DNA from: Psammoneis japonica
Taxonomy: Eukaryota
Assembly (NCBI GenBank): GCA_008632985.1
Contig: QPGO01000006.1
Coordinates: forward strand, 1 to 64,000
Length of the DNA: 64,000 nt
Direction: 5' to 3'
In this document: in pieces, positions 3,000 to 55,984 of the stretch
How the letters are laid out: every line of letters begins with the position of its first letter
Position numbering within the stretch: position 1 is the stretch's first letter
Made by a program: the position numbers and the translations under genes
The notes under the pieces: model-generated
Database searches by the model: none
Told to the model about the DNA's origin: nothing
Seen by the model: the letters and a program-made list of their open reading frames with translations, nothing else

Positions 3000-5900
3000 G
3001 TTTGTATCAGAAGCGTTGGAGCAACATGGTTCTCTTTCCCTCTAAAAGACCCAACACGTACCGGTGCTCCAAAAGAGATTCAAGATGAAGTCCCCAAAGG
3101 TACAATCCGAAGAGACATGTTTAGCTTCTTTCAAGTGCAGCAAGCTGACTTCGAATACCACCGCTGGCGAGTTTGTCTTCCAACTCTATACGCCGTGGTG
3201 GCATATGCTGGATTGCAAGATCTGCGCAAGCCAGAAACATGTTTCTTCCAGAGTTCATCATTATTGTGTTCGTCGCGACACAAACAAATCCTCTTCAATT
3301 AAACCCACGACTGGTCGATTTTGTTGTTGTGTTTTCAAAGTCACGCCCTCCCCAAAGCGCGAATCTAGAACGTTGTTTTATCAGAACGGATGCATGCTCG
3401 TTTCGTCTTTCGAAAATCGGTAAATGTACCAAACGATGCTTCACGACATGTCGTCGTCGTCGTCGTGAGTAGTTCCAAGAAATAACAGCTTTTTCCAATT
3501 CGCATCACTTGAAAATTGATGCAGTAGAAATGGCAACGCGACCTTGTGCAAATCACCCCACTGTTCACTGCGTTGCGGATGACACGGATGAAACCATCAT
3601 CTGAACGGCATGCTTTGTCTATATTTGGAAGAAGATTCTTCTTTTTTCGCTGCAGCCTTGCGTCGTTTTGGAGGCATTGGTGCAAACGATGCTGAAAGAG
3701 CGACGGCAGATTATCATGGGCGAGTGCAAGAACAAGAGAGAAAACTATTACAGACATGCACATGTGATGATCCTGGGTCAGACCAAAACGACACAATCAT
3801 CAGGCGATCTTTGCGGCAGTACCACGAGAAAAGATCCAGCATGCGCACGCTGACGGGCTGTTCGCGCTGTGACCAAAAGCGGGGGAAATATCAAATAGAT
3901 TCATACAATCGTGAAGAATACAAGGGATGTAGAGTTATGATCCCGTACAATGAAAATGTGGCAAATGGCATTGCGAACGGAACACAAGCAACTGTGGCAA
4001 AAGTCGTGCTGAAACCAGGAGAACATTCATCGCAAGTGGTCTTGGACTGTGGAACATCCATTCGAGGTGTCACAGCATCCCAGGTGGATCATGTAGAACT
4101 CAAGCATAGCAACAAAAGCATCGATCCACCCACCTTTTGCTCAAGCCTGAGTCTTCCACTTTCAAAGCCTGTTCAAAGGACCCAACCCAACAGATGACAG
4201 CTGAGGAAAAAGAGAAACACATGCTCGGACTGAAAGTAACCCAATTGCCATTCATGACAAACAATGCGACTACAGGACACAAGCTTCAAGGAAGCGGTGT
4301 CGACAATGTGTTTGTGCGCAGCTGGAGCCACACACAAAACTGGGCATGTGTCATGCTCTCCAGGGTTGAGACCAGAAATGGTGTGTATCTTCGGCAACCG
4401 CTGAAGAGAGATTTAAGTCTGTGCAGACTGCCGGACGGGTGCAATGCCCTGCTCCGGTTGATGGAAGGAAAAAGTGTCATGTGCTTCACCAACGAACAGT
4501 GTGGCGACATTTTGCAGTCCAATTGACACATGGAACATTTTGACACTGCATGTGGGAATTATTTCTACATTTTGGAAAACATTCCAAGCTTTGTGCGCGG
4601 GCTTGCAGGCGTGCCCGGCAACAACCGATAGAAAACAAAGGGTCCAATCTAATGAATCGATGTCAGCACATCATTGCAATGACAGACACACTCAGCAACC
4701 AGTGATGCACAACGTCAGGACAGTTCTCTTGTCATCTGCCATAGAACGATCACACCAGAATTGTCAAAAAGGGGAAACCCACGTCTCTTCTTACAACACA
4801 TCCATGCACGAATGCAAGAATTAAATCGCCATTTTTTGATGTGATGTTAAAACACAAACACAGAATTGCATCGCACATCAATTGGTTGCGAACCCATCAT
4901 TTGAGCGTGAGAATTTTTTAAAAAATGATTGGTGGCAAGTAAAGATCAAAGCTCTAGAATTTGATGCTCGCGTGCATGGCAATCCAAACCAGCCCGGGTT
5001 CCACACCTCCTCACTTCGTGTCCAGAGTTCCCACCACAAAGGAGGAACCAATTTGAATGAGTAAAATGGGCAATGGGTCTCCCTGCACAAACCATGGCAC
5101 ACATTTGTACGTGAAACCTGCCAATCACACAACGTGACCTCGCAAAACCATCTGCAGATCCCACGACACGATCGTTCCCATGGACCCACGCTTTCTCGTG
5201 CAAGGGCACACAGTTGATTCAATCGACGTGTTGCATTGACTCAATTGCCTTGAAATCGTGGATCTGTCTGACTCTGCCATGTCCAACATCTTTCTTGCAC
5301 TCATCATTGTGCACTTCATTCTCTCGCTTCCAGCTCCACTTCATTCTCTGGCTTCCAGTTCTTGTCGGGGGCATCGAGATCGACGTTCGCTTCTTCCGTC
5401 GCTGTGTTTTTGGCCTCTTTCCTTGGGTGTTTCCAAAGAGCTGGACGACAACGGCAAGTCAACGACCGGCTTGTGCACCCAAGTTTCATGCCTTGACAAT
5501 CACATCTGACTGTGTTCTTGCGTTGTTGCCGCCTTGATGTGGGAGCCGGCATTTGCTGACGACCGCGATTGTGGAGAAGAGGACATCAAGCACTTCTGGT
5601 GCACCGTGCATCTCTTGGTTCGGATGTTTGCTGTCGACGCGTTCCAGACGCAGGTGGGAATCCGTGTGACATTGGGCCCGCAGACTTCTGCGTGCGAGCT
5701 CCGCAGTAAAATCATGCGGCAATTAAAGTGTCAATGATCGCCAACAGAAAATGAGGCAATTTTGCGAGTGCACAAACTTGCACATGATTGAAGCACATCA
5801 TTTTTTACTTGGCCAGTTGCATTCTTCAGACATTGAAGAATGCAACTGGCGCATTGTTGTTTCTATAAATTTGTGGTGTAAAACGTCTGGGGCTTCACAA

Positions 5901-8900
5901 AACAGCGAGTCTGGACAATTTTTTTTAAATGTCACACGTAGAAATCTACGTACGAAACATGCGACGGATGACAAAAATTGTTGTTGTCACACGTCAGCAC
6001 TACGAGCTCCCGCCCAGGGCTGGAACGCGTCTGTCTTTTGTTGCAGTCGTGCAATTGGTGTCAATGCAAAGCGGGTGTGGCGCATTTTTTGTAGCCCGAC
6101 GTTCCACAGTCAAGATGGTGGGTGAAACAACTCCAATCGCAGCAGCGCTCATCAAATTTGTTTGCAAGAAGGCACTCCGCGCAGCCAAAGGGCACACTTC
6201 CAGCATTGGATCCAAGGAAGACCCTTTGATTTTGCTGGCGAGTGTTGACATTGGAGAAGTCGTTTGTGCCGCTGACAAGAAGATCGCTGGCATTGAGATC
6301 CATCTGCTCATCGCGTCGGCACACGGACTTGACTCAACACAATGCATTGGACTTGCATCTCTGGTTTTCTGGTGCTTTGCTCCGTGGACATTCAAGTGTT
6401 GCAATGAAGGCTGTTTCAGGAAGGGACTGGAGTCGACCATTGAGTTGCTCAATGCCAAGCACAAATGAGGACAAACTGCAATTCTCAAACCGGGTTCGGG
6501 ACACATCGAAATGCAAGCAAAAATTCTCAAGGTGCATTTCAATGACAAGTCAGTTCCCTGTTGCACCATCCTCTTGCCCAACAAAAAGGAAATTCTGCAA
6601 ACGGATGAGTCGCAGTCAATGAAAGAGCTGCCTCCAACTCGTTGCAAGTATTTTGAAGACGATTTTGACGACGACGAGGACTAATTTGAATGAAGCAGGG
6701 AAATGATGTCTGTGTGGCACGTTTTGTTGAGCTCAAAAAGGTTCTGGCCGAAATGAACGCTGTGGTCCATGCATGCGTGGTGGCCTCACCAATGTGGGAA
6801 CCTGTCGGTGAGACAACACAAAAAAGCAATCCTGTGCACGACATTTGAGTTCTGCTTTTGGGGAAATTTAGCTGCGTCGGAATGGAAAGAACTTGTCAAA
6901 ATGACACTGCGAACAATGCCCACTCTCTCCACATGTTGCTTGTTTGGCACTGATTGTCTTTTGAGTTCTGCAGCATTTGTTTTTGATGCAATGTGTTCCA
7001 CATTTACGGCAGCTCTGTTGGGCCGGAGCGATGCTGAGCTTCCGACCATGCAACTGCTCGCACTCACTCTCTGCCAGACACAGATGCAACCATTGATGTT
7101 TCTTTTGGTTGTGGCATGCTGCGTGCTTTTGACGACGACAAAACTTGATGGATTTGTTGTCACATTTCCAATGGGTCGTCATCATCGTGCAAATCACAAT
7201 GCTCCGCCATGTGATCAATGGAAAAAGACATGTCTTCTTCGTCTTCCCATGATGATTCTTCTTCTTCTGCTTGCAGTTGTTGTCTCGCAAGAGCCGTCAT
7301 GCGATGCGACGACGATTGTCGATGAGAAGACTGTTTCATGCCACCAATGGACGACATGGAGGTAGACATGACTTCGCTCGCAGCCATGCTGGGAGTCATG
7401 TCACTTGCCAAACTGTGCGCATCCACTTGAAGGATTCATCATTGATTGTGTGCTTGCTGGAAACAACCGATGCTGCCATTGTCGCACCTGCAGCGCCATC
7501 TTTGCCACACTGGGGCCTGTCGTCCATGGCGCAGCAGTTGTCGTCATCTTGCTTTGATGTTTTTGTTTGGTCTTTTTGTTTCTCATTGCTCGTTTTGCTG
7601 GTCCGCGTCTGGTCTTGGGTCGTTTCTGCACTTTCCACCAAACTGCCAATGCAAGTGCCACGGCTGCCACGCAGACACCACAACTCCCGCATTGTTGCTG
7701 CTGCATTTCTTGGAAGACTTCAATGACTTGCACATTTGAGGCTTCTTGCAAAAACTCGTTGCATCGCCCAAGGCTTGCCGTTGCACCACATGCACAAATT
7801 CTGTTTCAACGGGACTGCCTTGAAAAAAACTTGGCCCATGCACTTCAAAGTCGTGGCAGTTGTCAACAAGACTCGATTTGATTTTTGCAAGCCCAAATCA
7901 ATGCGGGCTGTCCGTGGCAAACTTTGAACAAAGGATCTCATCAAGCATTGTGAACGGGAATCAAACGGCCCTCATTGATTCAGGCATTCCTGTCAATCTC
8001 GTGACACGCTCCGACGAACAATTGGAACGACTTTGCACCCAGGAAACACTTGAACTTCGCCCACAACATCTTCCGTGCACGGAGGACTTGCAGTCGCTAG
8101 TCCAGCCTCCACAAGCACGTCCAACTGATGGCATCCGTGTTGTCTGGGCCCAAGTAGAGTGCAGGAGGATGCCGGCACAGCCGTGCAGGTTTGCCAACTG
8201 CTTTGAGCAGCAACCGTTGGGTGCCTCGATGCATCATTGGATGCGCGTCCTGACTTAGATTCAAAACTGAATGCCGAGTCCAAGAAGACAGTCACACCAT
8301 CATAAAAAAATCAGTGAGACGCTAACTGCAGTTCGTGAGCGAGCAACATCTTGGACAGAGAGAGTGAGTGCGAAAGCACACTTGAAAAAGCCAACGCTTC
8401 CCAAGTCCCAACAGCAGCGTGCCTGGACCCCAGGGATCTTTTGCATCTTCGCCACTCGCAGCATCACTTTTAAAAAAAGAATTTCCTGTGTCACTGCAAA
8501 ATCAGTGTCTGTTGTCAAGGGTCGAAGACAAAGGGCATTGCATTCTCTCTCAGTTGATGAAAATTGAGTTGGGGGGACGTCTGCAATGCAATGCACTGCC
8601 CATCTTGCGTTGGGGGTGCCAATTTTCTGTGACACCTCACTCTTCAGCCGAACTTGACGCCGATGATGGCAACAAAAGGGTTCCGGGGCTTCCACTCCGC
8701 TTCATCACAAACATGCGGAACAAAACATTTTGCACGAAAAAGACACAGTCAAGTCGAGATTTCACAGAGCAAACAGCAGAGGCGTCGCTTCATCTCCTTC
8801 TCCCTCACAGGACCGGCAAACAGACAATCACGAATCTTTGCCCCCTCTGCATCCTTGCTGTTGACGTTGATTCAACCAAAACCAAAATCGCTGGTCACCC

Positions 8901-10720
8901 GCAGGATTCAAAAAGGCCTCAATGCACAACAATGGAGACAAAACATGCCGTCAAGGGTGGCGACCACTTGAGACGCAATGAGACGACTCCAGAGAGCATG
9001 ACAATTCTTGAGGAGAGACGACGCGACTCAAACTGACGGAGTCGACCCCACAGTTCCTGCAGAGCTTCTCACTCGACGCCAGACTTTCCTTCTTAAGAGT
9101 GCAGCATCAATGACGATGCATCGCAGCTGCTGTTGACGCCAAGGGCAGAGTCACTTTGTTTGCTCTTGGTGTGAATCCTTGCCTTGGCGGCGACACGTTG
9201 TGCTTTAGCCTCAAATTCCCAAGTGAGCTTGGATGCTGGAATGGCCAACATGCCAATGGAAAGACCACCGTCATCAATGCAACAGACTTGGTGCACCACG
9301 GAAAGTCTCCTTCGGGACCGCCATGTCCGGCAAGCATGAGCATCGACGTGCACATGATTGCACCGATTGAGCCAAAGCCCTCTGCGTCTTGCATGTCTTT
9401 GACATGGCGCGGGTGACAGAAATGTCAGAGGAAGGCGCAAAGAGCACCAGGTGGACACACATGATGAGGGCCACCTGCAAGGGTGACCCTTGCAACACAA
9501 TCTGCCACCCTGGAAATGCATTGGGTTTGCTGAGTCCGCCACCCTGGGAAAAGGATTGAGTCAGTTGAGTGCGAGGCAATCTGAGGAAAAGAAGACAGGA
9601 CAAGGTTGGAAACTCCACCCGCAAGACCAGCTCTTGCGGGAAAAGAGAAAGGTGGCCAATGAATCAATGAAGAGCAACAGTCTCTTGATGGGTGCCATGT
9701 GGCTGCATTTCTTTGATTCCACAATGGCAACGAGGAGAGTGACACACCCAATTAGAAAGAGTGTGGATGATGCTCCTTCTTCGATGAGAAACGTGTCTTT
9801 CTTGTGCTTGGAGTGCGGATCCATCGACAATCCGAAATCAAAAGCGTTGGAGCAATGTGGCTCTCTTTCCCTCTGAAAAAGACTCAATTTTTGACTTGCA
9901 TGTGCACCATGTGCCTTAGCATTTCCTGCATGATGGCAGCAGCATGTGCCACTGCTGCCAATTTGGCTTGGTGGGTCCAAATTTACATGCCGTGGACCAC
10001 ATTGTCAGGCAATTGTGGCAAGAGGAATCCCTGTGAGAGCTTCACCGTCTCCACACAGAGGTGTGCAATAGGTTGAGAGTCGATTGCCGCAAAAATTGAG
10101 CTAAATTTCTTGTCTTCTGCTGTCCTTTTCTTGTGCGAAGGCTCGAACTTCGTTTGCTTCGGCTGTTTGACGTGAGGATCACCAGGACGCAAATAATCAG
10201 GTGCATCGTCAGACTCGGAATGTTCACTTTTCTTTGGATTCGTCGCTCTTCTCTGCTTCAAATGTCGGTCATTCCCTCGCAAATGAAGTTTCCACTGTTC
10301 CTTTCCGCAAACAGCACTGAGAAGACACATGATGCCAAGCGCGGTGCTCAGATGCTTCACATTTTTTCTCTCGATACGATTGATGTGGCTCTGATCTTGA
10401 AAACATGGCCATTGTTCGCGTTGCCGCAGTTTGTGAGTGTGATCATTGTGTGTCGCATTGCGACCCCGAGTCATGATTGCGGCGGGATTCAATTTCTCAC
10501 ATGCACCACAATGACGTGTGATCGTGTTGCACCCGAACGACCACAAAACGATGGAATAGATTCACCTAGACGGTTCCCCCGTTGTGGCGTGTTGGTACAA
10601 CCGTCCTTTGAATACAAGCAATCGCAGCTCCACATACACTGTTGCGGTTCGAGCCGCCAAACGCCAAACGCCACAACCATCATTGCGAGTCGTGCACGTG
10701 ACTGAAAGCGCGGCATTAAT
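3000..10720. mobile_element. Degenerate TE block including a Helitron-like PIF1 helicase remnant; TpA-depleted from about 4.2 kb
   Basis: PIF1 motifs at 3.9-4.5 kb. Shared segment 3011-3050 / 9842-9883. Broken Tyr-free, Cys/His-rich ORFs throughout. Most of 5-10.7 kb is not assignable to a family. Confidence 0.6.
3610..4526 (+). pseudogene. PIF1-family helicase C-terminal part (Helitron RepHel-like), frameshifted near 4140
   Basis: YKGCRVM..NENVANGIANGTQATV; QLPFMTNNATTGHKLQG; NWACVMLSRV, equivalent to PIF1 motif VI YVALSRV with Y->C. Confidence 0.8.
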
Positions 10721-11034
10721 TCATGTTGGCGTTTTCCCGCGCTTTTTTCCAATATTTACAACGTATTTACTCTTTAATACGTGATATTTGACTGTATAGT
10801 CTAAATAGAGCTTTCATTAATTTATAGCATCTGTAATGACATAGGTGATAATTATTATTCAAGATGCTTCAGTAATATAAACTTTCTTATTTCAAAAAAG
10901 TGGGACTTCAACAAAAAATCGAAATTTTTAGCCATCGAAATTTTTCCAACGAAGCGGTGATCGGAAAGAAAACAGCATAAATCCTTCCGTTGAAGTCATT
11001 ACGTCAATCCTCAATACCTCTTTTTTTATCGACG

Positions 11035-12312: not shown

Positions 12313-12522
12313 CTTGAACCTGATCGGTATTGGCATGGCTTTGGGAAAGAGGAGTACTTGGACACAAATGAGGGGAAGTAGTAGTGATATCTCTTTAAAT
12401 GAAGTAAATTTGTATCGTCAAGTATAAACTTGAGAGAGCTCGCAAAATTATTACTCTAGCTGCAACGCTTGTTATAGATAGTATTACGAATGGCAATCCC
12501 TATACAAAACACACTCCGATTG

Positions 12523-19879: not shown

Positions 19880-20811
19880 ATTGTTGAATCTCTTCTACCA
19901 AATAGAGCTATAAAGCCGATGACAGCAAAGGAAGACAAAGACGTGCGATAGACCTGTGTTATGGTGCGGGCTTTCGGTTTCCCGGCCGCTCCATCCATCC
20001 GGTCCATCCGCCCGCCCGCCCGTCGGCCCTGTGCATTGTATGTTCTTCAACCCGCTCCCGATCGTGCATTCTTGGGTTTTGGAGATGGTGAAGCATTCAT
20101 GCCGTGCGGTGGCGCCGACCCATGCTCGGCCTTGTTTGAGCTGTTCTCCATCGTTTTCGTTAATTGAAGACACTTGCATTACTTTGGGGAGGTGGCAGTG
20201 TCAGGTGAGACCCTTGGTTTGGCAAGAAACAAAGTTGTCGTTTTGTGTGGAAATCGAGATGAAGTTTTCGATCGTGTGTCAGCCATTTCTGAGCTGCGGC
20301 ACCCATGTTTTGATTTTCATTCATTCACCTCACCTCCTCTGATGCCCTTGGGCATGCTGTGTGTGATCTGTGGTGAGAAACATTGCACTGTCACATTGGC
20401 AAGAAGGGCCGCAAAATGAGGAATTGTCGCCACCCACACTTTGATGTTCGCGCATTCAGGCACCTCATGTGTTGTCTCCCATTGCTTTTGTCTCTTTGGC
20501 ACAAGATGTGAAAAGCATCTCACATGTCTTGGATGTGCTTTCTGTGTGATCTGTGGAGACAAACACATCGGCCGCACTCTTGTGGTCTCGTGCCGGCATT
20601 TTGTGTCTCTGTCACCGACCCGCGCTTGATGTTTGTTTGTTCGTTTCATCTTGACACTCACACTTCTCTAATTGAATCTTTGATTTGCAGCTGTGTTGGG
20701 GCTGTGCTGTCTTGGACGTGCTTTTGGTGTTGGCTGTGGCGAGAAACATCGTCCACACTTGTGTGGTCTCAAGTCTCAGATGTCAAGTTCGATGTGTGCC
20801 AGCGCCTTCTG

Positions 20812-21270
20812 CAGCATGCATGCAGACAAAAGGTTGTTTTTGTCATGCCCTTTGTGACATTTAAAGGCTGTGACACGTCGCCGTGATGCATTGGCTCTTG
20901 TCAGCAGCTGTGTGTTGCACTCCTCCCCATGTGTCGCGCATCCACACGGCTCTTTGCCAACGTGTGCTGACACTGCACGGTTTTGGCGGAACAGTGTGGG
21001 TGCACACGAAGGAACATGCAGAACTGCACAGAGTTTTGTGCGTTTGACAGTGATCAACGTTGCTGCAGACAACTCCTGCTCAGGGTTTCGAACCCCTGGC
21101 CTCCTGCCCAATGGTTGCGATGAACCACTCCGCTGTGAATTCACAGTGCAGCATGCATGCAGACAAAAGGCCATTTTTGTCATGCCCTTTGTGACATTTA
21201 AAGGCTGTGACACGTCGCCGTGACACATTGGCTCTCATTGGCAGCTGTGCATTGCACTTCTCCTTTCCAT
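20812..21270 (+). repeat. ~125-bp direct repeat (about 20812-20935 and 21149-21270)
   Basis: gcagcatgcatgcagacaaaagg..tttttgtcatgccctttgtgacatttaaaggctgtgacacgtcgccgtga present twice; differences are mostly TG<->CA. Confidence 0.85.
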
Positions 21271-22639
21271 CTGAGAACATGTTTGTCCCATTTGTCCAAC
21301 CTGCTGGATGCCAGTCAAGTCACAAAACAGAGCAGGGGTGCCAAACCAGTTCTTCTGTCATCCTGAAGCTGGCTTTGCTTTGTTTTCATTGGCGGCATCA
21401 TGTTCCCCAGCTGGTTGTCATGCGCCCAAGAGCCACCAAGCACTCTGACTGGAGCTCTCATGTCGTCCAACATCAGCGCATTTGATGGAAGAACAACAAG
21501 CAGCAAATCACTGGATGCGTCATTTGACAACCTGCAAGTGCCTCCAACTTGATTGAACACTGTTGAAAGGAACCTGACTCTTTTTGCCAGCAGCTGCAAA
21601 TGACGTGAACACTGGCTTGTCTGAGACACCCAAGACTGCAGCTGTGCCATGAGTGTTGCCAGCCTTCAGTTGACTGTGTTTGGCTTCAACATTTTTCTTG
21701 GCACAGTGCCCACATGCTTTGAGAAATGATTTGTTGTCAATTTTTAAGAACTTGGAAAGTTCTGGCTTGTGACATGTGACACAAGCCAGAACAATTTTCC
21801 AGGGATGAAGCCCTCCAGCACTCGTTCAATTTCATTGGGTCATTCAACAAAGGAGCCGATGGTGGCAAGTGCCTCTGCTGGTGAGGTCTGCGATGAAAAA
21901 TGATTGTTGCAGTCTGTGGCACACTTTCAAGGGCATGCCAAATTAATCTTGTGTGCAGCTGGGCACAAAAAGTGCAAAGCCATGCTGCTCTGCAAAACGC
22001 GTGCTTCATTTTGTGCAAAACACCCTGTTTGGCTCACCACCCCACATTCAATGCAAAATCCACCCAACTGTGTGCAGCAGGCATTTGTTGTGCGCTCGTT
22101 GGTCATGGCTGGGGGTGGCAGATCAACAATCAAAACCAGAAAGAACCCGGAAGTGAACATTTGCTGTGAGTGCACACGATTTGACTGCACAAACAGAAAA
22201 GAAAACTGCTTGACCCGACTGCTGTCAGAAGTGCCATGACAACCCAAGCCAAGGCTTGTCACTGGGGTGTTCTGCAAAACAGGGGTCGTGCTTTGCATGT
22301 TTCATCAATCCAGGGTGAAAGCAGGGTGAGGGGAGCCGCCCAATGCATGAGATCAATTCGGCATTTTGCCGCAGTGCAACTGCAGCTGCTTTCAGAAAAA
22401 ACAACCTGCCCTGCTTTGCCCCCCACAGCTCAATGCCAAGGATCATTTCTTTTGCTCTCTTGTCATGTGGTCTGTTTTCCATTTGTTGACTTGTGCAAGA
22501 CTGACAGTCATCAACATCAAGAAAGCAGCAGGAAAGGGTCCAAAGTTGATGCCATTGTGGTGCTGACATTTTTCTTGATTCACCCGCTGCACAAGTTGTT
22601 GCCCAACCAACGTGTTGACGAAGCCATTGATTGAATCAC

Positions 22640-22980
22640 AAGCGCCCAAACATGTTCATTGAAAACATTCAGAATTTGTGCTTCATGACTCAACTTGCGC
22701 TGAAGAACACTTTTGGGTGTTTTGCAAAAGTGGGTCAATGCAAACATGAGCTGCTCAAGAAAAAGTGAGCTCTCATCTTGCGGCGCCATTTGATGAAAAC
22801 AGACCCAATGAATGTTCAGAAATGCAGATGAGGGTGCATGCACAAGACATCTCAACATTTGAGGGTCTCTGCTTTTTTGCTGTTGAAAATTGTGCCACAG
22901 GTTCGGGCCACACACTTTGCTCAAAAATGGGCATTTTTGTGTGTGTGTGTGTGCAAACCTGAGTCTGGACCAAGTTGGAC
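22640..22980 (-). repeat. Dispersed repeat, homologous in inverted orientation to about 35100-35470
   Basis: Shared blocks aaaaatgccc.ttttt, gcacaattttcaacag.caaaa and tgagagct..tttt..tgagca. Confidence 0.6.
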
Positions 22981-25442
22981 ACAAAATGGCCAAGAGCACA
23001 AAATCCCAAAAGGTGCAAAATGGTCAAGGGCACAAAATGGGCAAGGCTGCTTAAAAAAATCACAAAAGGTGCAAAATGGCTGAGCGCAGAAAATCATGAA
23101 GGGCACACAGTGGCTGAGGGCACAAAAAGAGAAATGGCGCAAAATCAAAAAGGGCGCAATGTGGCCAAAATCACAAAATGATTGAGAGGGCACAGAGTGA
23201 GAGAGAGCACAAAGCCGCGGAGGGCACAAAATGGCTGGGGGCACAAAGGGCACAAAATGAGAGATGGCACAAAATCATGAAGGGCACAAAATGTGCGAGG
23301 GCGCGCAGAATGAAAGAGGGCACAAAACCATGAAGGGCACAAAATGGCTGGGGGCACAAAGTGAGAAAGGACAAAAAATCACAAAGGGTGCAAAATGGCG
23401 AAGGGCACAAAAGGGCTGGCTGCACATGACGAAACAACATTTGGGGTGACAAAGGGCACAAAATCCTGAAGGGCACAAAAGCACAAAGGTCACAAAATGG
23501 CCAAGGGCACAAAATGAGAAAAGGCAAAGAATTGCAAAGGGTGCAAAATGAGAGAGGGCACAAAGTTGCTGAGTGTGCAAAATGAGAGAGGACCCAAAAA
23601 TCATGGCGGGGCACAAAATGGCAGAGGGCACAAAATGAGAACAGCAGCAAAATCTCAAAGAAGGGTGCAACATTGCCAACAAGGGCACAAAGTGAGAAAG
23701 GGTGCAAAATCACAAAGAGTGCAAAATGGCCAAAGGCAAAGGTTCATGAGGGCACAAAATGAGAAAGAAGGGCACAAAGCTGTGAAGGGCACAAAATGTC
23801 TGAGGGCACAAAATCATGAAGGGCACAAAATGGATGAGGGCACAAAATTGGAAAGGGCGCCAAATCATGAAGGGCACAAAATGGATGAGGTCACCCAACC
23901 ACCCAGGGCACAAAATCACAAAGGTCTCAAAATGGATGAGGGCACAAAACAAGAGAGGGCACAAAACCACAAAGGGCACAAAATCACAAAGGGCACAAAA
24001 TGGCCAAAGGCACAAAATCATGAAGGGCACACAATGGCAGCCAAAAGCACAAAATGAGAAAGGGCACAAATTGACCGAGGGCACAAAATCACAAAGGGCA
24101 CAAAATGGCTGAGTGCGCAAAATGAAAAAAGGCAAAGAACTGCAAAAGGTGCAAAATGGTGAAGGGCACAAAATGAAAGAGGGCACAAACTCATGAAGGG
24201 CACAAAATGGCTGAGGTCACAAACTCATGAAGGGCACAAAATTGGAGCGGGCACAAAATGGATGAGGGCACCCAATGGCCAATGGCACAAAATCATGAAG
24301 GGGTCAAAATGGCTGAGGGTGCCAAATGAGAAAGTGCAAAAAACCGTGAAGGGCAAAAAAAAATTGTGGCTGGGGGGCACAAGGCACAAAGGGCACAACA
24401 TGAGAGAGGGCACAAAATCATGAAGGGCACAAAATGTGAGGGGGCACAGAATGAAAGAGGGCACAAAACCGTGAAGGGCACAAAATGGCCAGGGGCACAA
24501 AATGAGAAAGGACAAAAAATCACAAAGGGTGCAAAATGGCCAAAAAGGCACAAAATGGCTGATGGCTGCACATGATGAAAAAATGCGCGGAATGACAAAG
24601 GGCACAAAATCATGAGGGGCACAAAATGGCCAAAGGCACAAAATCATGAAGGGCACAAATGGCAGCCAAAGCCACAAAACAAGAAAGAGCACAAAATGAC
24701 CAAGGGCACAAAAGCACAAAGGGCACAAAATGGTTGAGGGTGCAAAATGAGAAAAGGCAAAGAACTGCAAAGGGCACAAAATGGCTGAGGGCACAAAATC
24801 ATGAAGGGCACAAAGTTGGAAAGGACACAAAATGGATGAGGGCACCCAGTGGCCAAGGGCACAAAATCATGCAGGGCTCAAAATGGCTGAGGGTGCCAAA
24901 TGAGCGAGTGTGCACAAAACCATGAGAAGAGCACAAAATGGCTGAGGGCACAAAACCACAAAGGGTGCAAAATGGCCAAAGGCACAAAATCATGAAGGGC
25001 ACACAATGGCAGCCAGAGGCACAAAATGAGAAAGGGCACAACTTGGCCAAGGGCACAAAATCACAAAGGGCACAATGTGGCTGAGTGCACAAAATAAAAA
25101 AGGCAAAGAACTGCAAAGGGTGCAAAATGGCGAAGAGCACAAAATGAGAGAGGGCACAAAATCATGAAGGGCACAAAATTGGAAAGGGCACAAAATTGGA
25201 AAGGGCACAAAATGGATGAGGCCCACCCAATGGCCAATGGCGCAAAATCACGAAGGGGTCAAAATGGCTGAGGGTGCCAAATGAGAGGGTGCAAAAAACT
25301 GTGAAGGGCAAAAAATTGCTGAGTGCACAGAATGAGAAAGGGTGCAAAATGGCTGAGGGAAGCCCAGCCCCAAATGGCTGGCTGCACAAACAAAGGGCAC
25401 AAAATGGCCAAGGGCACAAAATTGTGAAGAGCACAAAAAATG
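22980..25442 (+). repeat. Satellite, ~19-21-bp unit with GGGCACAAAAT core and higher-order duplications
   Basis: Roughly a hundred or more GGGCAC/GGGTGC-AAAAT cores with short variable linkers. 23260-23440 resembles 24400-24580, and 23980-24350 resembles 24950-25310. Confidence 0.95.
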
Positions 25443-25444
25443 GC

Positions 25445-25620
25445 TTTTGATGAGCTTTCAAGCAAGCAAAGGCATGGCACACCTCATCCAGGTGTCCCTC
25501 ACATGGCAGTGCTGGGCCAGAAGACATGGGCAAGATGGCAACAAAGATGTCCATGCATCTGAGCTCAACTGCACAAAGGAGCACCCTGCCAACAAACATG
25601 GGTGGCACCTTGCCAGATCA
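25445..25620 (-). mobile_element. Ty1/copia (diatom CoDi-like) RT-RNase H linker remnant
   Basis: CAVELRCMDIFVAILPMSSGPALPCEGHLDEVCHAFACLKAH matches the recalled copia pattern WAVELGRIDI...MSS..ALPREGHL..VYHIFAYLK. Confidence 0.75.
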
Positions 25621-26349
25621 AAGCAGCTGCATTTCCTGCTCAACCTCAGACACAACCACATCATGATTTGCTCACTCAGGTCCAAGAGCAATGAGGAAAT
25701 GGCTGTTGAGCTTTCCAACATTGTCTGTGGATGATTCAAAGTCATGAAGAAATGTGTGTCAAGAATGCAGTTGGTGCAGAAACCCCATTTGACAAGCCAA
25801 AGTGCCGCTGACATTGGATGCAATGAGGCCAGCAGTGGGGTTGAAATCATCCAAAAATGTTTCTCAAAGGCTGCAACATGCCAAATGGGCTGTCAGCACG
25901 TTTGCCATTTTCCCAGGTTGTGCTAGAGCTGTCGCACATTTCCTTGATGCAACAACGCTGTCTTTCATGAAAAACCAGCCAGTTTTCTTGAAACAAGCCA
26001 TTCTCTTTGGCGGCTTCAAAGAGGTTTTCTGCTCCAGCGCCAAACACCAAAAATGCACAACAGCTCAATCAAACTGCAGTGCAAGTGCACAGTTCTGTCA
26101 GAGCAAAGTGTTTTCATGGGGACCAAGGGCAAAGTCTTTTTGAGAGAATGCAGCCTCTCCAAATGCACATTGTGGGCATGTGTGGGTGTTGTTGGCAGAG
26201 CAAACCAAGAGTGTTTTGAGCTCTTGTTTCTTTCCACCACAAGAATGGTTGGCTCTGAACATCTGAACAAGCCCAACAACATGTGCTGCTGGGTCCACAA
26301 CAAAGACAACATTGACTTGCCTGACAACAAATGAGCATCAGCGTCATCT

Positions 26350-27148
26350 TCTGAAACTTTTTCTGAAAGTTGGCATGCCAAGTTTTGCCCCAAAATTGGC
26401 ATGCAAAGTTTTGGTCAAGATTGGCCTGCCAAGTTTCCCCTCAAAGTTGGCAAAGTTGGCATGCCAGGTTTGCTCCAAAGTTGAAGCACCAAGTTTTGCA
26501 CCAAAGTTGGCATGTCATGTTTTGCCCTGAAGTTGACATGCCAAGTTTTGCCCCAAAGCTGGCAAGCCAAGTTTTGCTGCAATTTGGCATGCCAAGTTTT
26601 GTCCCAAAGTTGGCATGCTTTGGCATGCCAAGTTTGCTCCAAAGTTGATGTGCCAAGTTTTGTGCCAAAGTTGGCAGGCCAAGTTTTGCTCAAGATTGGC
26701 ATGCTGAGCTTGCCCCCAAAGTTGGCGTGCCAGGATTTGCTCCAAAGTTGGCATGCCAAGTTTCTCCCCAAAGTTGGTGTGTGAGTTTTGCTCCAAAGTT
26801 GGCAGCACCAATTTGTGCCAAAGTTGGCATGCCAAGTTTTGCTCCAAAGTTGGTGCACCAAGTTTCCCCCAAAAGTTGGTGTGCCAAGTTTTGCTCCAAA
26901 GTTGGTGTGCTGTGTTTTGCCCCAAAGTTGGTGTGCCAAGTTTTGCGCCAAAGTTGGTGCTCCAGCTTCTTTTTCCTCAAAGGCGGCACACCACATTTTG
27001 TGCTCCAATGTTGGTGCACCGAGTTTTGACCCCAAGTTGGCATGCCATGTTTTGCCCCAAGTTGGCATGCCAAGCTTTGCTCCCAAGTCTGCACACCAAG
27101 TTTTGTGCTGCAGCTGGCATTCCAAGTTTTGCTCCAAAGTTGGCATGA
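26350..27148. repeat. Satellite, ~25-bp near-palindromic unit CCAAAGTTGGCATGCCAAGTTTTGC
   Basis: About 30 tandem units; the core AAAGTTGGCATGCCAAGTTT is almost its own reverse complement. Confidence 0.95.
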
Positions 27149-28439
27149 CATGGGATCCTTTGCAAGCCTATTGTTGTGGTTGCAACCTTCTCAGTGGAGT
27201 GGCCCAAAAAGGAAATTCATCTGGCTGACCATCTTTTTTGATGAAGTTGTGCCACAATCAGAAAGAGGCTTTCACAGTTTCAAGGTCAAGAGCTTGTGCC
27301 CACCAGCGGCTGCACTTGTTTTGTCAACCTTTTGGTTGCAGCATCTTTTGCAGCCCACAACCTTTGGTGGTGACAGCAGCTGCTCTCCCCTTCATTCATG
27401 TCTGTTGCAGGCTTGGTTGCTCAACAAGCCATGAGGCATCTGCAGCAAAGACCAAACAAAAGCAGAGCTGTGCATTGTTGGCAAAAATGTGGAGATTTGA
27501 ATGGCCATGCTTGTTCTTCCAACTGGCATTCCTCATGTGCAGAATGAAGTGGGTTGTTTAAGTCACTCTTTTGTTGCACAGCCACAAATGATGCAAACCA
27601 CAAGGCATCTTGAGCGAGGCCAAGGCAAAAGCAAAGCTGCACATCGTGGCAAACAACACATGGCAGATTGAGCAGTCATGCTTGCTCTTTCCTTTCACCT
27701 CTTTTGTGTGCAGTTGTGCAGTGGGTCATTTTCCTTCTCATGCAATGTGGCCACAAATGCAACCACCAGGGCTCCAAGCAATGGCCAGGGCAAAAATGGA
27801 GCTGCGCATGAGCAACGTCAATGTGGCTGATTTAATGGCAAAGTTTTTTTCCCTGCTCTTGCGCAAGGGGCCACATGGATGTCCATGGGACCAAAAGCAC
27901 ACCTGGCTAAAAAGGTTGATGCATGTTGCCGCACAATCCACTCAACCCCCCCTGAGCCCTTTCAGGTGTTCCAAGGTTTGTCCCAAAGCTTGCCTTGGTT
28001 GCTTGCAGTGGCTGCGGGTTGCCCAGAAAATGTCAGCAGAAATGTGCACGCACAAAACATGCAACAGATGACACAAAAAACAACCGCATCACATGCTGGC
28101 ACTGCAAGGTCCCACCTGGGACTGAAAAGCCTTGTTGCCAATGGCCGTTGGCATGAGAGACAACCTTCAAAAACTCTTCCTTTCTCAGCCACCTCAGTCA
28201 TCAGGGAGCCTCTTCCTCTTGTGGTCTGCTGCAATGACGGAACAGCACTCAGCCACAGTCTTGGTGCTGTTGAGCTTTGTGTGAGATGAGCAGTGGTCAG
28301 AAGATGATTGGGCTTGCATGTTGCACGCAAAACACACAGAAGCAAGATGAGTGCTTGTTGCTGCCCTTGTTTTTGGCCACTGCATTGAGAGACACCACGA
28401 AGGCCTTGGGGTGCTCAGCAGCCCGAGACCAAAGTGCTT

Positions 28440-29639
28440 GACTTTCCTTGGGGAGGCACGTCACTTCACTGGCAAGGAAAGCAGCAATGGCTGTTTTGGC
28501 TTGGTGGTTCTTGGAGCACATGACTGACCCCCCTGTTGTGGCAGCACTGCAGCACAGATTGAGCTCCCAGATTTGCCATGAACTCCTTCCCATTGTCTGC
28601 ATGGCTGGCCAGGGGGCAGCTGATCAAAGAGCAAAAGTGACAGAGCTCCTTGATCTCATGTGTGCAGCAATCTTTCAAAACCACTTTGAGCCACTTCATT
28701 GCCAGGGAGCTGGGGTCCTCTGGGCAGAGTTGGCAATGGCCTTTTTGTCAACCCACCAAGAGTCAATCTGGAAATCGTCCTGGAAACTGTGGCTCGTGAT
28801 GGGGGCTCAAGCCCCTCAAACTCTCACCACACAGATGTCTCTGTGTCTTGCTGCAATTGGGGCAAAGGCCAATGAAGTGAGAAACCAGCATCTCTGCAAC
28901 AGTGCAAAATTTCTTCCTAACTTGAGATGGCTTCACACCCCCGTGCCCATGGTGCTCCGCCACAGCATCAAAAGAAAACTGCTCAATGTGGACAACAACA
29001 AGCACCGACATCAAAGATCAATCCTCTCACCTTTCTTGATCCAGAAAAGCACATCATGGAAGAGGTTGTGGGTCTCCACCCAGCAACTCTGCTGTCAGGT
29101 GTGAGCTTGGTTGCCAAAAATTTGCAAAACTCCTTGGTGCTGAGCCCATCAGCACCCGCATGCCAGATCTTGATTGTGCAAACCTTCGTCTCTCACTCGG
29201 ATTGAAGCACAAGCTTGGGCCTTGTCCCAATCACAGCACTGTTGCAGCCATTGTCCATGACGCCAAACACAGCATTGTCAAAGGCCTCTCATTGATTTGT
29301 CTCCATTTGAAGATGCTCCTGACCTTGTCAGGAGAAGTTGCGACAGTGGTGTTGGAGTGGGAGGGAGGGACTCCTCTTGGCCAACAAAGTCAACAGAATG
29401 ACAGCAAGAGAGGAACAGCAAAAAGGCAAGAGAGGCAGATGGCCAAGGGTGCCATGTCTTGAGCCAGTCATCAATTCTTGAGAATCCGGTCACTGACAGA
29501 AGAAGGAACTCTTGCGAACCTGTGTGAGGCGGATTCCAGAAAATCCATGATTCACAAGAAATGGAATTTTGGAACCATTTTCACAAGATTCCATGCCGGG
29601 ATTCTCAAGAATCGCGGATTCACAAGAATCGTCGTAACA
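28440..29639 (-). mobile_element. Ginger/GIN-type (KRBA2/SCAND3-like) integrase transposon remnant with a putative terminus
   Basis: H2C2 zinc finger FDAVAEHHGHGG...LVSHFIGLCPNC and rve core LISCPLASHADNGKEF. Terminus reads TGTTACGAC on the minus strand at 29639, with ATTC[A/T]CAAGA sub-terminal repeats. Confidence 0.7.
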
Positions 29640-31219: not shown

Positions 31220-31259
<40 letters not shown>

Positions 31260-34819: not shown

Positions 34820-36760
34820 CCACCCTTAAAACAGAATGTTGTGATGTGAGGTGTGCGATTGAGGATGATTCAAACCACACTGGACACCACCTCCTTGCTC
34901 TGCCGCATTCGAGCAAACAAGCTTCATTGATTGGTGGTGTCTCCTGCACTCTCTGTTGTTGGCCAAAAACCACAAGCAGCGATGTGCCAAGCACCTGGAA
35001 CAGAGCAATCACAACTCAGCTGGCCCTTGCCATTTGCAAGTTTTTCTGACTCATCAGCAAAACAATGAGTCCCGGTCCTGCACATCTTGTTTTTCACTTG
35101 ATCCCAACTTTGACTTGCTCCACAGACACTTGGGTGTGCACACGCATGAAAAATGCCCCTTTTTTTGCACACAAAACATGTGGTCCAACATTTCAGCACA
35201 ATTTTCAACAGTCAAAACACAACAATTTCCAAATGCACTGTTGTGAACATGTGCAGAAAGGTCTCATGCATGTGAAACTGAGGGTGGACAAAGTCATTGT
35301 GTGGCAGCTGAATTGTGCATGTCAATGTGAGAGCTTGGTTTTCCGATGAGCAATTTGCTTGTGGCCACACTCACATGCAAACAAAAATGCAAAATAATTT
35401 TTTTGCACACAAATCAACTCTTCAATGATGCCAAATGAAGTTTTGTTAGAATGCACAAACACAGGTTGCTCTCAACAGAGCAAGCAAAACACACGCAGAT
35501 GAACAAGATGTGAAAAGAAATGAAGCTCATTTCTCACACAATGAATTTTGGACCATCTTTCATGTTTTGTCTGCACAAATGACTGAAACACTTGCATCAG
35601 CTGATGATGTGAAGAACAAACACATGGCAATGGAAAAAATGTTTGCCCTTGGAGGCTGGCCATGAGCAAAATGAGAGGACCAGTCATGATTGTTGGCGAC
35701 AGATTTGTCTTCTTGTGCTGTGCTGCACTGCCTGTGACAAGCACTTTCATCACTGCCATCAATGACTCAGACTGCCCAAAACCACACGGTTGAAAAAAGC
35801 AGGCTGTCATGGTCACTGAAAGCCACCGCCATTTTGGCTGTTGGTTTGCTTGGATTTCATCTGTTCATTTTGCTCTCGCAAGCTGCTGGTGCACCCATGA
35901 AACATTTTTGTGTGTGTGAAGAGGGGGACACCTGCACACCACCCAAGTCTGGAACAAGTCCTTTGTTCTCATGAATGCTCAGCAGGTTGGTTGTTTTGGC
36001 TGTCACAGGCAAACCCTGCATTTGTCTGCAGCCTTTAAAATTGTTTTTGTTGGCTCAAATGGAAAGACACATCTTCTGCCCTGTTCAACATGATGCTGCA
36101 AATTGAGTCTGCCACAACTGAATCTGCTCCCAACAGCCACAACAATCCTTGTGAGGTGTTCCATCATCCAAGTCAATGCTGGTTGCATGTTTTTGAGTGG
36201 AAACATCACAGATTTGAACAACCTGACTCATCATTGTGATCCATTGCCCATTGTGGATCATGCTGCATGACACAAGTGGTTGCTGTGGAGCATCTGATGT
36301 TCAACATCGCCCCAACAGCACATGACAATTGGGGCAGCTTCTGCGACAGGGGTTCATTGTTCAACACTGCAAACGACAAAGAACGCGTGCTGGAGGGCAA
36401 GCTTCAAAGCACGGCCTGTGTGCTGCTGTCCACGACATCAATTCATCTCATTTCCAAAAATGCCGAGCACTTGCAATTCACAACATCGGGAATCCGAGTC
36501 CTGGATGAGCCATCTTTCCGATGCTGTGGGTTGTGGAGCAATGACTTGGCCCTCTGTGTGCACAAGCTTTCTGTGCCAGAAGTCCTCGTCAGCATTGCTC
36601 TCATTCTGCTTGACGGCATTGTGCGACACCAGCAGTCCTTTTGGCCAAAACAAGGCACAGAAAGAATGCATGGCAATGACACCAAAGACAAAAGGAAGAA
36701 GCAAGGTGCAAAGAATGATGACACATGTCCGAAGGGATTGTGCTAAGGGCTGGCATGAGC
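34820..36760. mobile_element. Degenerate TpA-depleted repeat block
   Basis: Near absence of TA; shares a dispersed repeat with 22640-22980. No family identified. Confidence 0.55.
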
Positions 36761-51641: not shown

Positions 51642-54600
51642 GCCCTTGAAAACACGTATTGTTTCGGACCTCAGGTTTGCCTACGGCACTGGCCATGATC
51701 TCCAGTGTGGCAAGCTCAGTACTTCGTCAAAAGCAGAAACGATGGCAGCCAGTACTGGTTGCACAAACGACACCGTAACAATGCAAAGGCCGACCAGAAC
51801 CAAAAAGCTAGCGCAGCGTGTCTGAAAGATACGTGCGATGAGTGTCTTACTTGGGCCTACAAAGAACGTGAACTAACAGCAGAAGAGAAGAAACAAATCA
51901 GCAAGCAATCGAACGCACGAACAGCAATCACACCTGCAAGGACTAGGAACCTACGATACCTTTGTAAATGCCCTGGATTGCTGGAAGGCGCTGGGCAGAT
52001 CAGTGCTGCCTCTCTTACCAAGCCGAAAAAATACTCCTTTCATTGCCGCTGGCTGGAATCGTCTCAAGAACGGATCAACGTCCTGACTCGAATGATGAAT
52101 AATTTTCGGTTTGCTGTCCGGGTTGGCAGTAAGACACCCCAAGCTGCGGTTGTGCAGAGGCTACTATACCTTGCCCAGCTGCAAGTGCTGCACATGTGTA
52201 CATTATTCACTCCTACCGACATTGAGTAGTGCGGAAGCGTGGGCAATTTCCGAAACCGGACAAACCAACAGATCCGCTCCGTTAGAAGCTGTTCTCTGCG
52301 GCTCCGACGGGAATACTTCATCCCGAAGCTACGGCGGAGGTACTTGTTGATAAAGATGGCGAATAATCCATAAATTTTGAGGCCATTGTTTGGAACAACA
52401 CAGGGCACTCTCTCTCCACATTGTGGTGCACTCTCTGACCCAGACCTCGCCGCACACATCTCATGCAGCATGAGGAGTCACTGTCGTGAAAGTCGCCAAA
52501 GCAAATGCAACCCAACTGTCAAACGACGTTTACATCGACTGTAAGAGCATTCCCAATTACACTCATGCGATGCTGCATGATAAGGTGAACAACGTATGAT
52601 AAGTACCAAAAGGTGAGAGAGGCATCAGAGCAACAGAGACAACAAAATTCTGAAACATCGTAAGAATATTGCAAAAGACTAGTGACAACGCGTTGATCAG
52701 TCTTCCACAGATTGTGGACGAACCAGAGCACCAACTGACACAGCTGTAACAAATGCAGACAATGTGAATAAGAGAGACAATATATTAGTGACTTACCCTG
52801 TGCAAAGGCCTCGCGACAACGCTCCAAGAAGTGTTTCGCAACATCTTGTGTTTGTTGCTGCTTGCTGCATCAAGATTGTGCTGGTGTGTTGTTTTTTCTC
52901 GCGGATGTGAAACAGTCGCGCACTTTCACTCTGCGCGTCGTCGCGCGTCAAAGCAACAATGCATCGATCGTCGCTTTCACACACCTTTTTTGTGGTCACA
53001 GTCACACACTTTTCTTTTTGCAAGGATCGCAAAAACAGATGAATTCTAGCTGGAGAGATGCCACCTGGTGCACTGCTGCTGCTGCTGCTGCTTTTTCCTT
53101 TCTCTGAGTTGTTTTCAATCAAACAAGAGCCAAACACGTGCCTTGAGCTGCGACCCCCCCTTTGTTTGGGCAAAACTGCCAAGCCATGGAAAATGCAGCT
53201 GTCCAAGATTGTGGTGTCCAGCACATTGGTTGGTGCGAGGCCAGCAACACCACCATGATTTTTTGCTCCTCCAGCTCCGGGCCAGCTCCAGGTGGCACCT
53301 CGTGCTGTGTGCTGCGCGGCTGCAACAGCCATGAGAGCATTTTTTTCAGCGCGCCACAGGATGGAAAAAAAGAGCAACAAGGTGATTTTAACATCTTGCA
53401 CAAACCCGGCAAATGACAACACATCATTGGAGCTCTCATGGCTTGAGGCTGCTTTGCAGTCAATGGTCCAATGCAGTCAGCCTCAACACACAAAGCTCCC
53501 ACCACAAATTGTGCTCAATGAGGAGCGTCGTTTTGTGCATCGCCTGGGGCTGGAGCGCATCTCCAGCAAGCTCACAACAAACAAGAACAGGCTGCTCTGT
53601 TCATTCTGCAAGCTTGTCTCCCAACATTGTGCCATTTGCCACAAAAGAGCTCTCAAGCACACATGTCTTGCTCATGTTTGCAAACAGCTGGTGCACAAAG
53701 AAATGTGATGCAAGTGTTCTTGCCAGCACTCTCTTTTTCATTCTTGTCATTGCTCCCACCCAGACTGGCATCTTGTTTGTCAAAACATTTGACAGCAGCA
53801 CCCGTGCACTTTCCTGTCATGGAATTGAGGGAGAAAATCATCTGGCCCAACATGCTTTGTCAACAACATGCACAAATCTTTGGGAAAGCTCCCTCCTTTT
53901 GTGCCACTGCTTGTTTCGCTCACTTCAAAAGGGGATGGGTTCCAGCCACATGTGAACAAAAACATGCACAAAAATGGCACTTGCCCAATTTTTGCATGGT
54001 CTCCAACTTGCAAATGAGAGCTTTCACTTCCAAAAGTGTGGATTTGTCTAAATTTCAATGTTGGCAATGTCATTGTTTTGGTGCAATCAATGTTCTTTGT
54101 TGTGCTGGCAAATGAGCTGCAACACAAAAGGTGATTTTTGCCAAAATTTTTGAAGATTCACACACCATTGTTGCTGTTTGAAGGTTGACTCAAAATGTTT
54201 CTGCGTGCATTTCACAGGAGTGATCTGCTTGAACAAAATTCTCTGCAGCATGAGTGCCGATGCACAGTTAGAATTGTTTTCACTGAAAACTTTTGTGACA
54301 CATGTTCCTCCATGAAGACTTGAGCACCAATGAAAAAGTTGCTTGAATGTGTGTGCTCGAATCAAGTGCCAAAGCCAGAGCGCACAATCATTCTCAACAA
54401 ACAGCCTCAGTGCACAAAGCTTGCACAAATTGTGCTCAAAAGGGAGCATCATTTTTGTGTGTCACCTGGGGCTGGAGCATGTCCCAGGCTTTGGCACTTT
54501 GACATCATCTCCACAAATTGCGGGTGGTCCAACTCTCCTCTTGCTGTGCAGCGAGCAGAAATGCCTGGCTGCCTGGAGAAGATGTTGTCAAGAATCAAAA

Positions 54601-55984
54601 CAGCAGCAATGTTGGTGGTGTTTTGGATTGGCGGCAGTGATGATTGACTTGATTGGCTGGAAACTGGTTGCACAAGATTGTTGCCTGGGGTCGTGGTGGT
54701 GGTGCAAAGATTGTTCAAGAGGACAGAGATGAGATTCCATGAGAAGTTGCTTGTGCCCTTGCTGGCATTGACACTCCAGGCCAGCTGACCTTCTTGACTT
54801 CTCCATCTGACCCCATTCTCAACAACCGAGCACTGCACCATGTGGCGGATCAAATGAAAAAGAGCACGCCCTCTTTTGTGAAAACGCAGCAAATTTGTGT
54901 GTCAACCCAAGTGTTGCAGGATTTGTGTCAATCCAAGCATTTCAGCATTTTTCAATGGATGTTGCATTCATTGCCCAGTGCAAGGGGCAAAAGTGATTTT
55001 GCTTTTCTTGGCCACCATTCTCTTTTTCTTCCTTGCTGTGCTCTTTTGTCGTTGTTGATGCCAGATTGTTCTTGTGCAGATGAAGAATAAAAGTGAATGA
55101 AAGCAAAGTTACAGACCACCTGTCCATCTCCAATCTCCTCCCACCAACTCAACCAGAAGTGACCAACAAGTTGAGTTCGAGTGAGTCACTTGCTTTGGTT
55201 GCTGGAATGTGTCATGGTCCCATTCCACAGTTTCTCCTCAAAAAGATTTTTGACATTTGCGGTGCCACAGTTCTTTTTCAGGAAAGCATCGAAATCAATG
55301 GATTCTGCACCCTTTGAATGTCCTTCCATTGCAAGAACAAAGCATTGAGACACCAGACTCTCCAGCAAAATGTTCCTTTGCCAACCGCGCATGATCTCCT
55401 CTCTCCAGCTTTGAAGCATTCTCTGTGACAAATCCAGTTACCCTGTTCCAAGCGACAGTTCGCAGGTGAGACACCACTTCTTCCATTGCTTCAATTTGCT
55501 GAGACACCACGGGGAAGTCCACATTCTTTTCATCGTCCAGCTTCTCGTTCAGGCAGGCCATGTGCAGTTGTTTGAGGACCGGCTAAATGCGCAGTGCACA
55601 TTTTTGAGTTTTTGGGTCTCATTTTGCGCTGAATGCGCAAAAATGCGCTGCTGTGTAGAAACATGCCAGGATTCTACGTGGCGTCACACCTGAACGTTGC
55701 AACACACTCGTGATGAGCTTGCAACTGCAACAGAAGTGATTGGCCCTCTCTAGAGACAAGAAGTGACAGTCACATCACAAAACTCACTGTCACATGCATT
55801 TGCAGCTGTCACCCACTCAAGCAAGTGACAGTGCTTGCTGTTCAGTCGTTCAAACATGCAGATCTCAAGAATGTCGCGTGGGATCTCAGTCACGGTTGTG
55901 AAGCTCGCGGCAGTGCGCAGACAGTGCGCACAGGGTTGGAGGGAGGCTGTGACGTCATCTGTCAGTGCTGCATCTACGCAGAGT

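Follow-up and report, generated by a model that had tools for sequence, protein, structure and literature searches.

Fast TpA conversion and slow CpG decay share discrete domains of a diatom genome

Why would a stretch of DNA lose almost all of its TpA dinucleotides and keep most of its CpGs? The question is raised by a block at positions 4200–10720 of a 64,000-nt stretch of the Psammoneis japonica genome (assembly GCA_008632985.1, contig QPGO01000006.1, positions 1 to 64,000 of the forward strand), the whole of which was analysed and is called the window here. The host is a pennate diatom with a genome of 91 Mb, and a gene flanking the block matches diatom proteins at 72–76% (Seminavis, Cylindrotheca and Amphora among the named matches). 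We hold it highly likely that two clocks run in this DNA, a fast one that turns TA into TG or CA and a slow one that turns CG into the same products.

TpA is lost and CpG largely kept

Dinucleotide use was expressed as rho, the strand-symmetric observed/expected ratio, with the genic background of the window (TA 0.64, CG 0.98) as reference. In the block, rho is 0.13 for TA, 0.77 for CG and 1.55 for CA/TG. At the genic background, 5000–10500 should contain 246 TA and 301 CG; we count 34 (Poisson p about 1e-64) and 254 (p 0.003). A first-pass annotation of the window had described the block as having lost TA but kept many CpGs, and this holds in detail at 5371–5470 (0 TA, 10 CG), 6658–6680 (0 and 4) and 9018–9050 (0 and 5). 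Its CpG, described there as kept, is far less lost than TA but mildly depleted rather than fully retained. The same contrast was claimed for two other block edges; it is present at 57500–58400 (5 TA, 48 CG), whereas 19960–20200 spans a boundary and has 4 TA and a rho of 0.37. Four cores said to lack both dinucleotides (21000–29500, 35000–36200, 53000–55500 and 62600–64000) are indeed poor in both, with rho of 0.02–0.04 for TA and 0.14–0.28 for CG.

The two dinucleotides do not fall in parallel everywhere: 15 of the window's 128 500-bp windows are low in TA and high in CG, and 2 show the reverse. Thirteen further stretches, a non-random set picked around copies and beside the window, give 59 low-TA/high-CG and 1 high-TA/low-CG among 258.

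Copies with and without TpA

The block reads as a mosaic of a Helitron end, a miniature inverted-repeat transposable element (MITE) and two duplicated host-type genes, one of them termed segment X:

3067..3746, plus strand: upstream part of duplicated segment X, unconverted; 81–91% match to paralogs, 14–17 TA per 500 bp
3918..5053, plus strand: partly converted 3′ piece of a Helitron-type transposon, with the end of the helicase and the subterminal region; 12 other copies aligned
5052..5635, plus strand: first part of segment X, converted; the gene is host-type, present in several copies and not assignable to a known family; three TA-retaining paralogs
5636..6031, no strand: insertion resembling a MITE and bounded by terminal inverted repeats; over 20 copies, identical at about 94%
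6031..9157, plus strand: second part of segment X, almost fully converted; common to another converted copy up to 9156
9028..9830, minus strand: copy of part of a host ion-channel gene (Ion_trans and EF-hand), converted; the parent gene is intact elsewhere
10550..10800, no strand: sharp right boundary of the converted domain; TA per 100 bp rises from 0–3 to 10–14 within about 200 bp

Segment X offers the most direct comparison, with three paralogs of normal TA content and open frames of 313–345 amino acids set against four converted copies. With the majority of the three TA-retaining paralogs as reference, and an aligned part reaching 6955, the 65 reference TA sites have become TG in 34 cases and CA in 24 in the window copy, with 4 still TA and 3 other (58/65 TG or CA). 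The 88 reference CG sites read CG 55, TG 19, CA 12 and other 2 (31/88 TG or CA). Across the four converted copies TA became CG in 1 of 268 cells. The segment X protein, at least 313 amino acids long (locus L075:2964–3905 and paralogs), has no convincing Pfam match; there are at least seven copies, four of them on the window's contig.

Other pairs agree. The channel fragment (9110–9830) keeps none of its parent's 36 TA, 29 of which became CA or TG, and 19 of 41 CG; the copy of 44559–44811 lying in 62500–64000 keeps 0 of 14 parental TA and 0 of 13 CG. The inserted elements at 4200–5050 and 5636–6031 retain part of their TA: the Helitron fragment (3918..5053) has kept TA at 21 of 74 sites and CG at 34 of 37, and the MITE has 11 TA and 24 CG where its least changed copy has 30 and 26. 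The MITE is younger than its surroundings. BLAST did not recover a 58-nt match between 10229–10286 and 34269–34326, which we take to be fortuitous.

The largest sample is a related full-length Helitron family, which bears PIF1 and Helitron_like_N domains (19 rows from 18 loci; 20 stretches were tried, and L070 and L071 were dropped for want of a long match). Its 346 TA sites comprise 2266 TG, 2135 CA, 1274 TA, 25 CG and 14 other cells, and its 369 CG sites 5046 CG, 468 CA and 418 TG. About 78% of TA cells are converted, as against 0.57% A>G/T>C (180/31452) more than 6 nt from a TA site; 886 of 5932 CG cells are converted (15% CpG loss), as against 0.2–0.5% C>T at other C. The fast change is restricted to TpA, with hits on neighbouring bases as a minor exception. 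None of the Helitron copies read was unconverted.

Direction of the change

Read from these copies, the change is shown to run from TA to TG/CA, that is A:T>G:C, because intact paralogs carry TA, ambiguous sites have TAY-like third bases and conserved tyrosine columns are altered. At 36 ambiguous TG/CA sites in codon positions 1–2, the third base is C or T in 36 of 36; at CG sites all four bases occur. One Helitron helicase copy, compared at 12 conserved-Tyr columns with 106 outside homologs, has Cys at 7, His at 3 and Tyr at 2. At one helicase position in the window's own Helitron family, the 12 in-frame copies carry 6 Cys, 6 His and no Tyr. Among 120 helicase homologs from other public sources, three (P0129, P0134 and P0187) have less than 1.2% Tyr; in the conserved-Tyr columns, 22 of their 36 cells are Cys or His. 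This hints that the process is not limited to the host genome.

These results bear on the idea that TG and CA stem from CpG decay alone, or that a TA-poor composition was inherited from the elements or selected. CpG decay does give the same products and is active here. Intact paralogs nevertheless have TA at the sites in question, the codon and homolog tests both give Tyr as the start, and outcomes differ between copies. The inferred ancestral composition (rho TA 0.66–0.71, CG 0.97–1.01) equals the genic background. The paralog, codon and homolog comparisons refute this explanation, and we give it hardly any credence.

Two rates in shared domains

Taking minus the log of the fraction kept as loss rate, the TA:CG ratio is 6.1, 7.1, 9.3 and 6.9 in the four converted X copies; the two Helitron families give 9.3 and 16, with a lower value of 3.5 in one row of the full-length family. 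Per-copy TA loss follows CG loss (19 rows; Spearman 0.83 with one classification of the sites and 0.78 with another), and unconverted paralogs have neither. The first-pass annotation had called the two losses decoupled. This holds for rate only: the chemistry is separate, but the losses share domains and correlate from copy to copy (Spearman about 0.8). It had also placed TA conversion earlier or faster. Faster it is, by a factor of 6–16; an earlier start is unnecessary, as a common start with two rates suffices.

With both losses in common domains and increasing in step from copy to copy, the block is a domain of middle age, its TA nearly exhausted and about a third of its CpG gone, and the cores are old ones:

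20000..29500, no strand: older domain, with a CpG-keeping left rim at 20000–21000, a core without both dinucleotides, and 17-nt and 26-nt tandem arrays
35000..36700, no strand: old core without both dinucleotides
52800..59000, no strand: old core at 53000–55500 and a long TA-free, CpG-keeping part at 55500–59000
62500..64000, no strand: old core running past the window end and continuing in the next contig stretch; contains the converted copy of the intact stretch 44559–44811

A CpG-keeping rim is found at some edges (20000–21000, 55500–59000) and not at others (29500, 35000, 62500), which would fit domains that grew at a later time better than a constant gradient. MITE copies at different TA levels are expected if exposure time sets the level: the copy with 30 TA forms a TA-normal island within a fully converted block, and the window copy keeps 11. 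The arrays of the oldest core are degenerate (22960–25600 and 26360–27170, units of 17 and 26 nt) and free of both TA and CG. In gene-rich DNA, short CTAG-rich simple repeats at 15500–15800 and 31100–31300 are unconverted and high in TA, and an ArsH-type arsenic-resistance reductase common to other diatoms lies at 29922–31034 on the minus strand.

The slow loss is probably deamination of 5-methylcytosine (5mC), an assignment made because diatom transposons are described as carrying DNMT5a-dependent CG methylation (PMC9998398). The host has several C5-methyltransferase genes, one of them DNMT3-like, and DNMT5 was not identified among them.

A site-by-site signature at TpA

In the full-length Helitron family, non-transition cells at TA sites number 14 of 5713, and near-pure transitions are what a miscoding base would give. 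Outcomes at one site differ between copies, and TG (2266) is about as frequent as CA (2135). The hazard of the target A depends on its 3′ base (T 1.55, C 1.09, A or G 0.42–0.45); conversion is highest in ATAY and lowest in YTAR contexts, an A two bases 5′ of the target is favoured, and CGTA/TACG sites are relatively resistant. Within the converted blocks of the window TTAA survives best, at 0.49 of background, and ATAT is at 0.00.

Between 3 nt and 4 kb, TA–TA, CG–CG and TA–CG pairs are no more strand-coordinated than after shuffling, so that TA sites are converted one at a time; long processive tracts of the kataegis kind or of the kind left by repeat-induced point mutation (RIP) are ruled out by this lack of coordination beyond 2 nt. 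Coordination occurs in TATA only (74/119 against 48% shuffled, z 3.3), and for TA–CG pairs one of 11 distance bins reaches z 2.5. Neither distance to CpG (rho 0.04, p 0.43, 328 sites) nor CpG density affects TA conversion, and there is a weak local covariation of the two losses within 30 nt in the same copy (about +0.04 to +0.05, 2–3 standard errors).

Miscalled or misassembled modified bases in repeats could mimic part of this pattern, as a strand-symmetric TpA miscall would likewise give random, uncoordinated TG or CA. Against such an artefact, a 4875-nt public contig from a separate assembly covers 8949–13823 with 5 differing letters, although its run may be of the same sample; young copies inside converted blocks retain TA; and conversion follows per-copy CpG loss. 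An artefact is accordingly an exceedingly improbable explanation. A second public run has little coverage of the block and spliced flanking genes, and this sparse coverage was not counted as evidence. At 9207, inside the block, the window and the public contig differ by a single TA>TG, which may be ongoing mutation or an allele.

Hits on neighbouring bases are strand-specific. The A at +1 on the same strand changed in 68 of 761 cases when the target was hit, against 6 of 1153 when the other strand was hit and 5 of 985 when the site was kept; for the A at −2 the counts are 56/992, 10/966 and 1/79. As rates, TAA>TGG stands at 9% against 0.5% and ATA>GTG at 5–6% against 1%. The window's own Helitron family repeats the effect (+1, 7/82 against 1/479; −2, 8/159 against 2/304). 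The doublets are not a few inherited events, because TGG appears in at least one copy at 41 of 178 TAA sites. Nor do they arise from the newly made context, which is ruled out by the low rate of change at pre-existing TGA (to TGG, 36/3917) and ATG (to GTG, 31/3027), about 1%. No same-strand neighbour changes were found around CpG events. The first-pass proposal that TA conversion is a separate process, converging with CpG decay on CA/TG, is therefore upheld by its A:T>G:C chemistry, its own flanking preference and a neighbour signature missing from CpG events; CpG decay operates here with the same products.

The neighbour signature also bears on the possibility that a modified base at TpA (methylated adenine or oxidized thymine) decays or miscodes in silenced DNA, as 5mC does at CpG. 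The symmetric dinucleotide target, the independence of sites and the steady covariation with CpG decay all resemble mark-and-decay. Passive decay, however, predicts no same-strand neighbour changes, just as CpG events have none, and the genome gave no MT-A70 or Tet_JBP match, a weak negative from searches run without a positive control. We consider a modified base quite unlikely.

Position and repetition

The three X paralogs, the channel gene and the gene at 44559–44811 are spared, and their copies inside domains are converted; one spared X paralog has converted DNA 1–2 kb away on either side. Repetition alone is insufficient for conversion, because repeated parents outside domains remain untouched. 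Position in a silenced domain, rather than pairing, would be the simplest reading of what sets conversion.

Mutation of all duplicated sequence triggered by RIP-like pairing might have been expected from the duplicated host genes affected and from the several C5-methyltransferase genes of the genome, perhaps through the diatom DNMT4 enzymes, described as possibly related to RID (PMC9998398). The chemistry here is the opposite one, strand-coordinated tracts are missing, and three of seven X copies as well as both parent genes are untouched despite repetition. Such a mechanism is very improbable.

Several loci touch on the same subject. Perfect young tandem duplications at 47596–49211 (units of 434 and 108 nt, 96–100% identical) have normal TA, and duplication alone is no trigger there. 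A copia-type retrotransposon adjoining an intact X paralog (L075:5750–10000) is only partly converted and has a sharp edge. Duplicated C5-DNA-methyltransferase copies (L106, L107 and L108; G000 C301 and C297) are TA-erased and broken, and related single genes (L102, L103) are normal; a further related gene (L109) adjoins a chromodomain frame.

Candidate mechanisms

We propose that both clocks start once a region has become a silenced, transposon-seeded domain. On the slow clock CpG, presumably methylated, would decay by ordinary C>T change. The fast clock, about 6–16 times faster per dinucleotide, changes A to G at single TpA sites, in either strand, and runs on while any TpA is left. Its lesion would be hypoxanthine, produced on heterochromatic DNA by an adenine deaminase of the TadA/ADAT2 kind, reached through a locally opened bubble of 3–4 nt and fixed at replication; transposon proteins would be ruined via Tyr to Cys/His, and the pattern resembles the trace of a genome defence that works by mutating DNA. 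A heterochromatin-targeted adenine deaminase is probably the fast clock, and we favour it because a miscoding base made in a 3–4-nt opening fits best. TAC is reported as the preferred motif of TadA-derived editors (PMC8065034). Besides an ADAT2-like gene, the host genome has one TadA-like and two PF02137 genes; no targeting domain is visible in any of these. ADAT2 is a housekeeping gene. The genome gave no match to alkyladenine glycosylase, for which the positive control matched in 4 of 14 genomes.

Several observations weigh against a deaminase. No enzyme is tied to the process, the ADAT2-like gene being a candidate. No chromatin-reader fusion was seen in the PF00383 and PF02137 frames read, and the deaminases look like an ordinary set. 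An endonuclease V gene is present, and endonuclease V can act on inosine. The favoured A at −2 and the resistance of CGTA/TACG differ from the TadA substrate, and for A>G the base 5′ of the T is A, not C (1.3% against 0.5–0.6%), much of this being neighbour hits. Sites within a family partly share descent, with pairwise outcome agreement averaging 0.59. Finally, the genome carries a polymerase-iota-like gene (E 2e-26 to pol iota, 1e-14 to the next family).

That gene underlies the main rival, in which something marks or excises TpA in heterochromatin and a polymerase-iota-type enzyme fills 1–4 nt, placing G opposite template T. Pol iota is reported to insert G opposite T more often than A (PMC3031609) and to contribute to tandem mutations (PMC4995076), and tandem TAA>TGG fits such a patch. 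The neighbour changes, however, are found 5′ as well, TA conversion is independent of CpG distance, and a separate TpA-specific trigger would still be required. Pol iota also has appreciable T:T misinsertion, against which the near absence of transversions at TA (the 14 cells above) speaks. We judge this rival unlikely, though to be taken seriously.

The adenine deaminase remains our preferred reading. More tentatively, diatoms, and perhaps algae of the stramenopile–alveolate–rhizarian (SAR) group, might possess a chromatin-guided DNA adenine editor that acts on methylated transposon domains through 3–4-nt bubbles, needs no homology pairing and erases TpA and Tyr codons. It may span lineages because the three outside helicases among 120 show the same Tyr-to-Cys/His pattern.

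Relation to known systems

The closest precedent is in an unrelated alga, Bigelowiella natans. The 2026 preprint of Mettrop et al. (bioRxiv 10.64898/2026.01.13.699255) describes T/A>C/G transitions at TpA, giving TpG or CpA, in two virus-derived regions of mutation-accumulation lines; hypermutation there is active in a subset of lines at about 1000-fold above background, TpA-poor coding sequences are enriched for transposon domains, and ADAT2 is proposed as a candidate. Both organisms show nearly pure T/A>C/G transitions restricted to TpA, on either strand, in discrete regions, which in the diatom have sharp boundaries. In either organism ADAT2 is a candidate only. They differ in that the process was measured live in a rhizarian alga and is read here from copy divergence in a diatom; that the targets there are integrated viruses and here a Helitron end, a MITE and copies of host-type genes (the identified parts, excluding about 9830–10550); and that here it is near completion, in domains common with CpG decay. 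The diatom process is a variant of the B. natans type of TpA hypermutation, differing in lineage, targets and domain sharing with CpG decay. The main text of the preprint does not contain the terms ‘CpG’, ‘diatom’, ‘tandem’, ‘flanking’ or ‘polymerase’, and our literature searches, whose coverage left out most subscription papers, found no diatom report of a TpA process.

If the proposed mechanism is true, RIP would have an adenine-based counterpart in a major phytoplankton group, a second lineage would join the one in which a single preprint describes such a process, and a natural double-stranded-DNA adenine editor would be of interest to the base-editing field. The neighbour signature, the flanking motif and the spared parents yield concrete predictions by which a deaminase and an error-prone polymerase can be told apart, and knockout tools exist in diatoms. 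The two clocks date heterochromatic insertions, TA for young ones and CG for old ones. As a caution, long stop-poor, Tyr-poor frames in such genomes are dead elements.

RIP and the diatom process are both repeat-associated, dinucleotide-specific transition mutagenesis that ruins transposon genes. RIP leaves strand-coordinated tracts; here same-strand outcomes are at the shuffled level. In ascomycete fungi RIP makes C:G>T:A changes, chiefly at CpA, in both copies of a pair (PMC2621366), whereas here the change is A:T>G:C at TpA, non-CpG C>T stays at 0.2–0.5% and parent copies are spared. The process is not RIP. Deamination of 5mC at CpG probably supplies the slow CG>TG/CA clock of the same domains, but it cannot make TA>TG/CA, is 6–16 times slower and comes without neighbour changes. 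TadA/ADAT2 deaminases, as a natural enzyme, stand as candidates and differ from the process in its extra preference for A at −2 and its resistant CpG-adjacent sites; with them and with adenine base editors, it has in common pure A>G change, a requirement for 5′ T, a preference for a 3′ pyrimidine and edits at neighbouring A.

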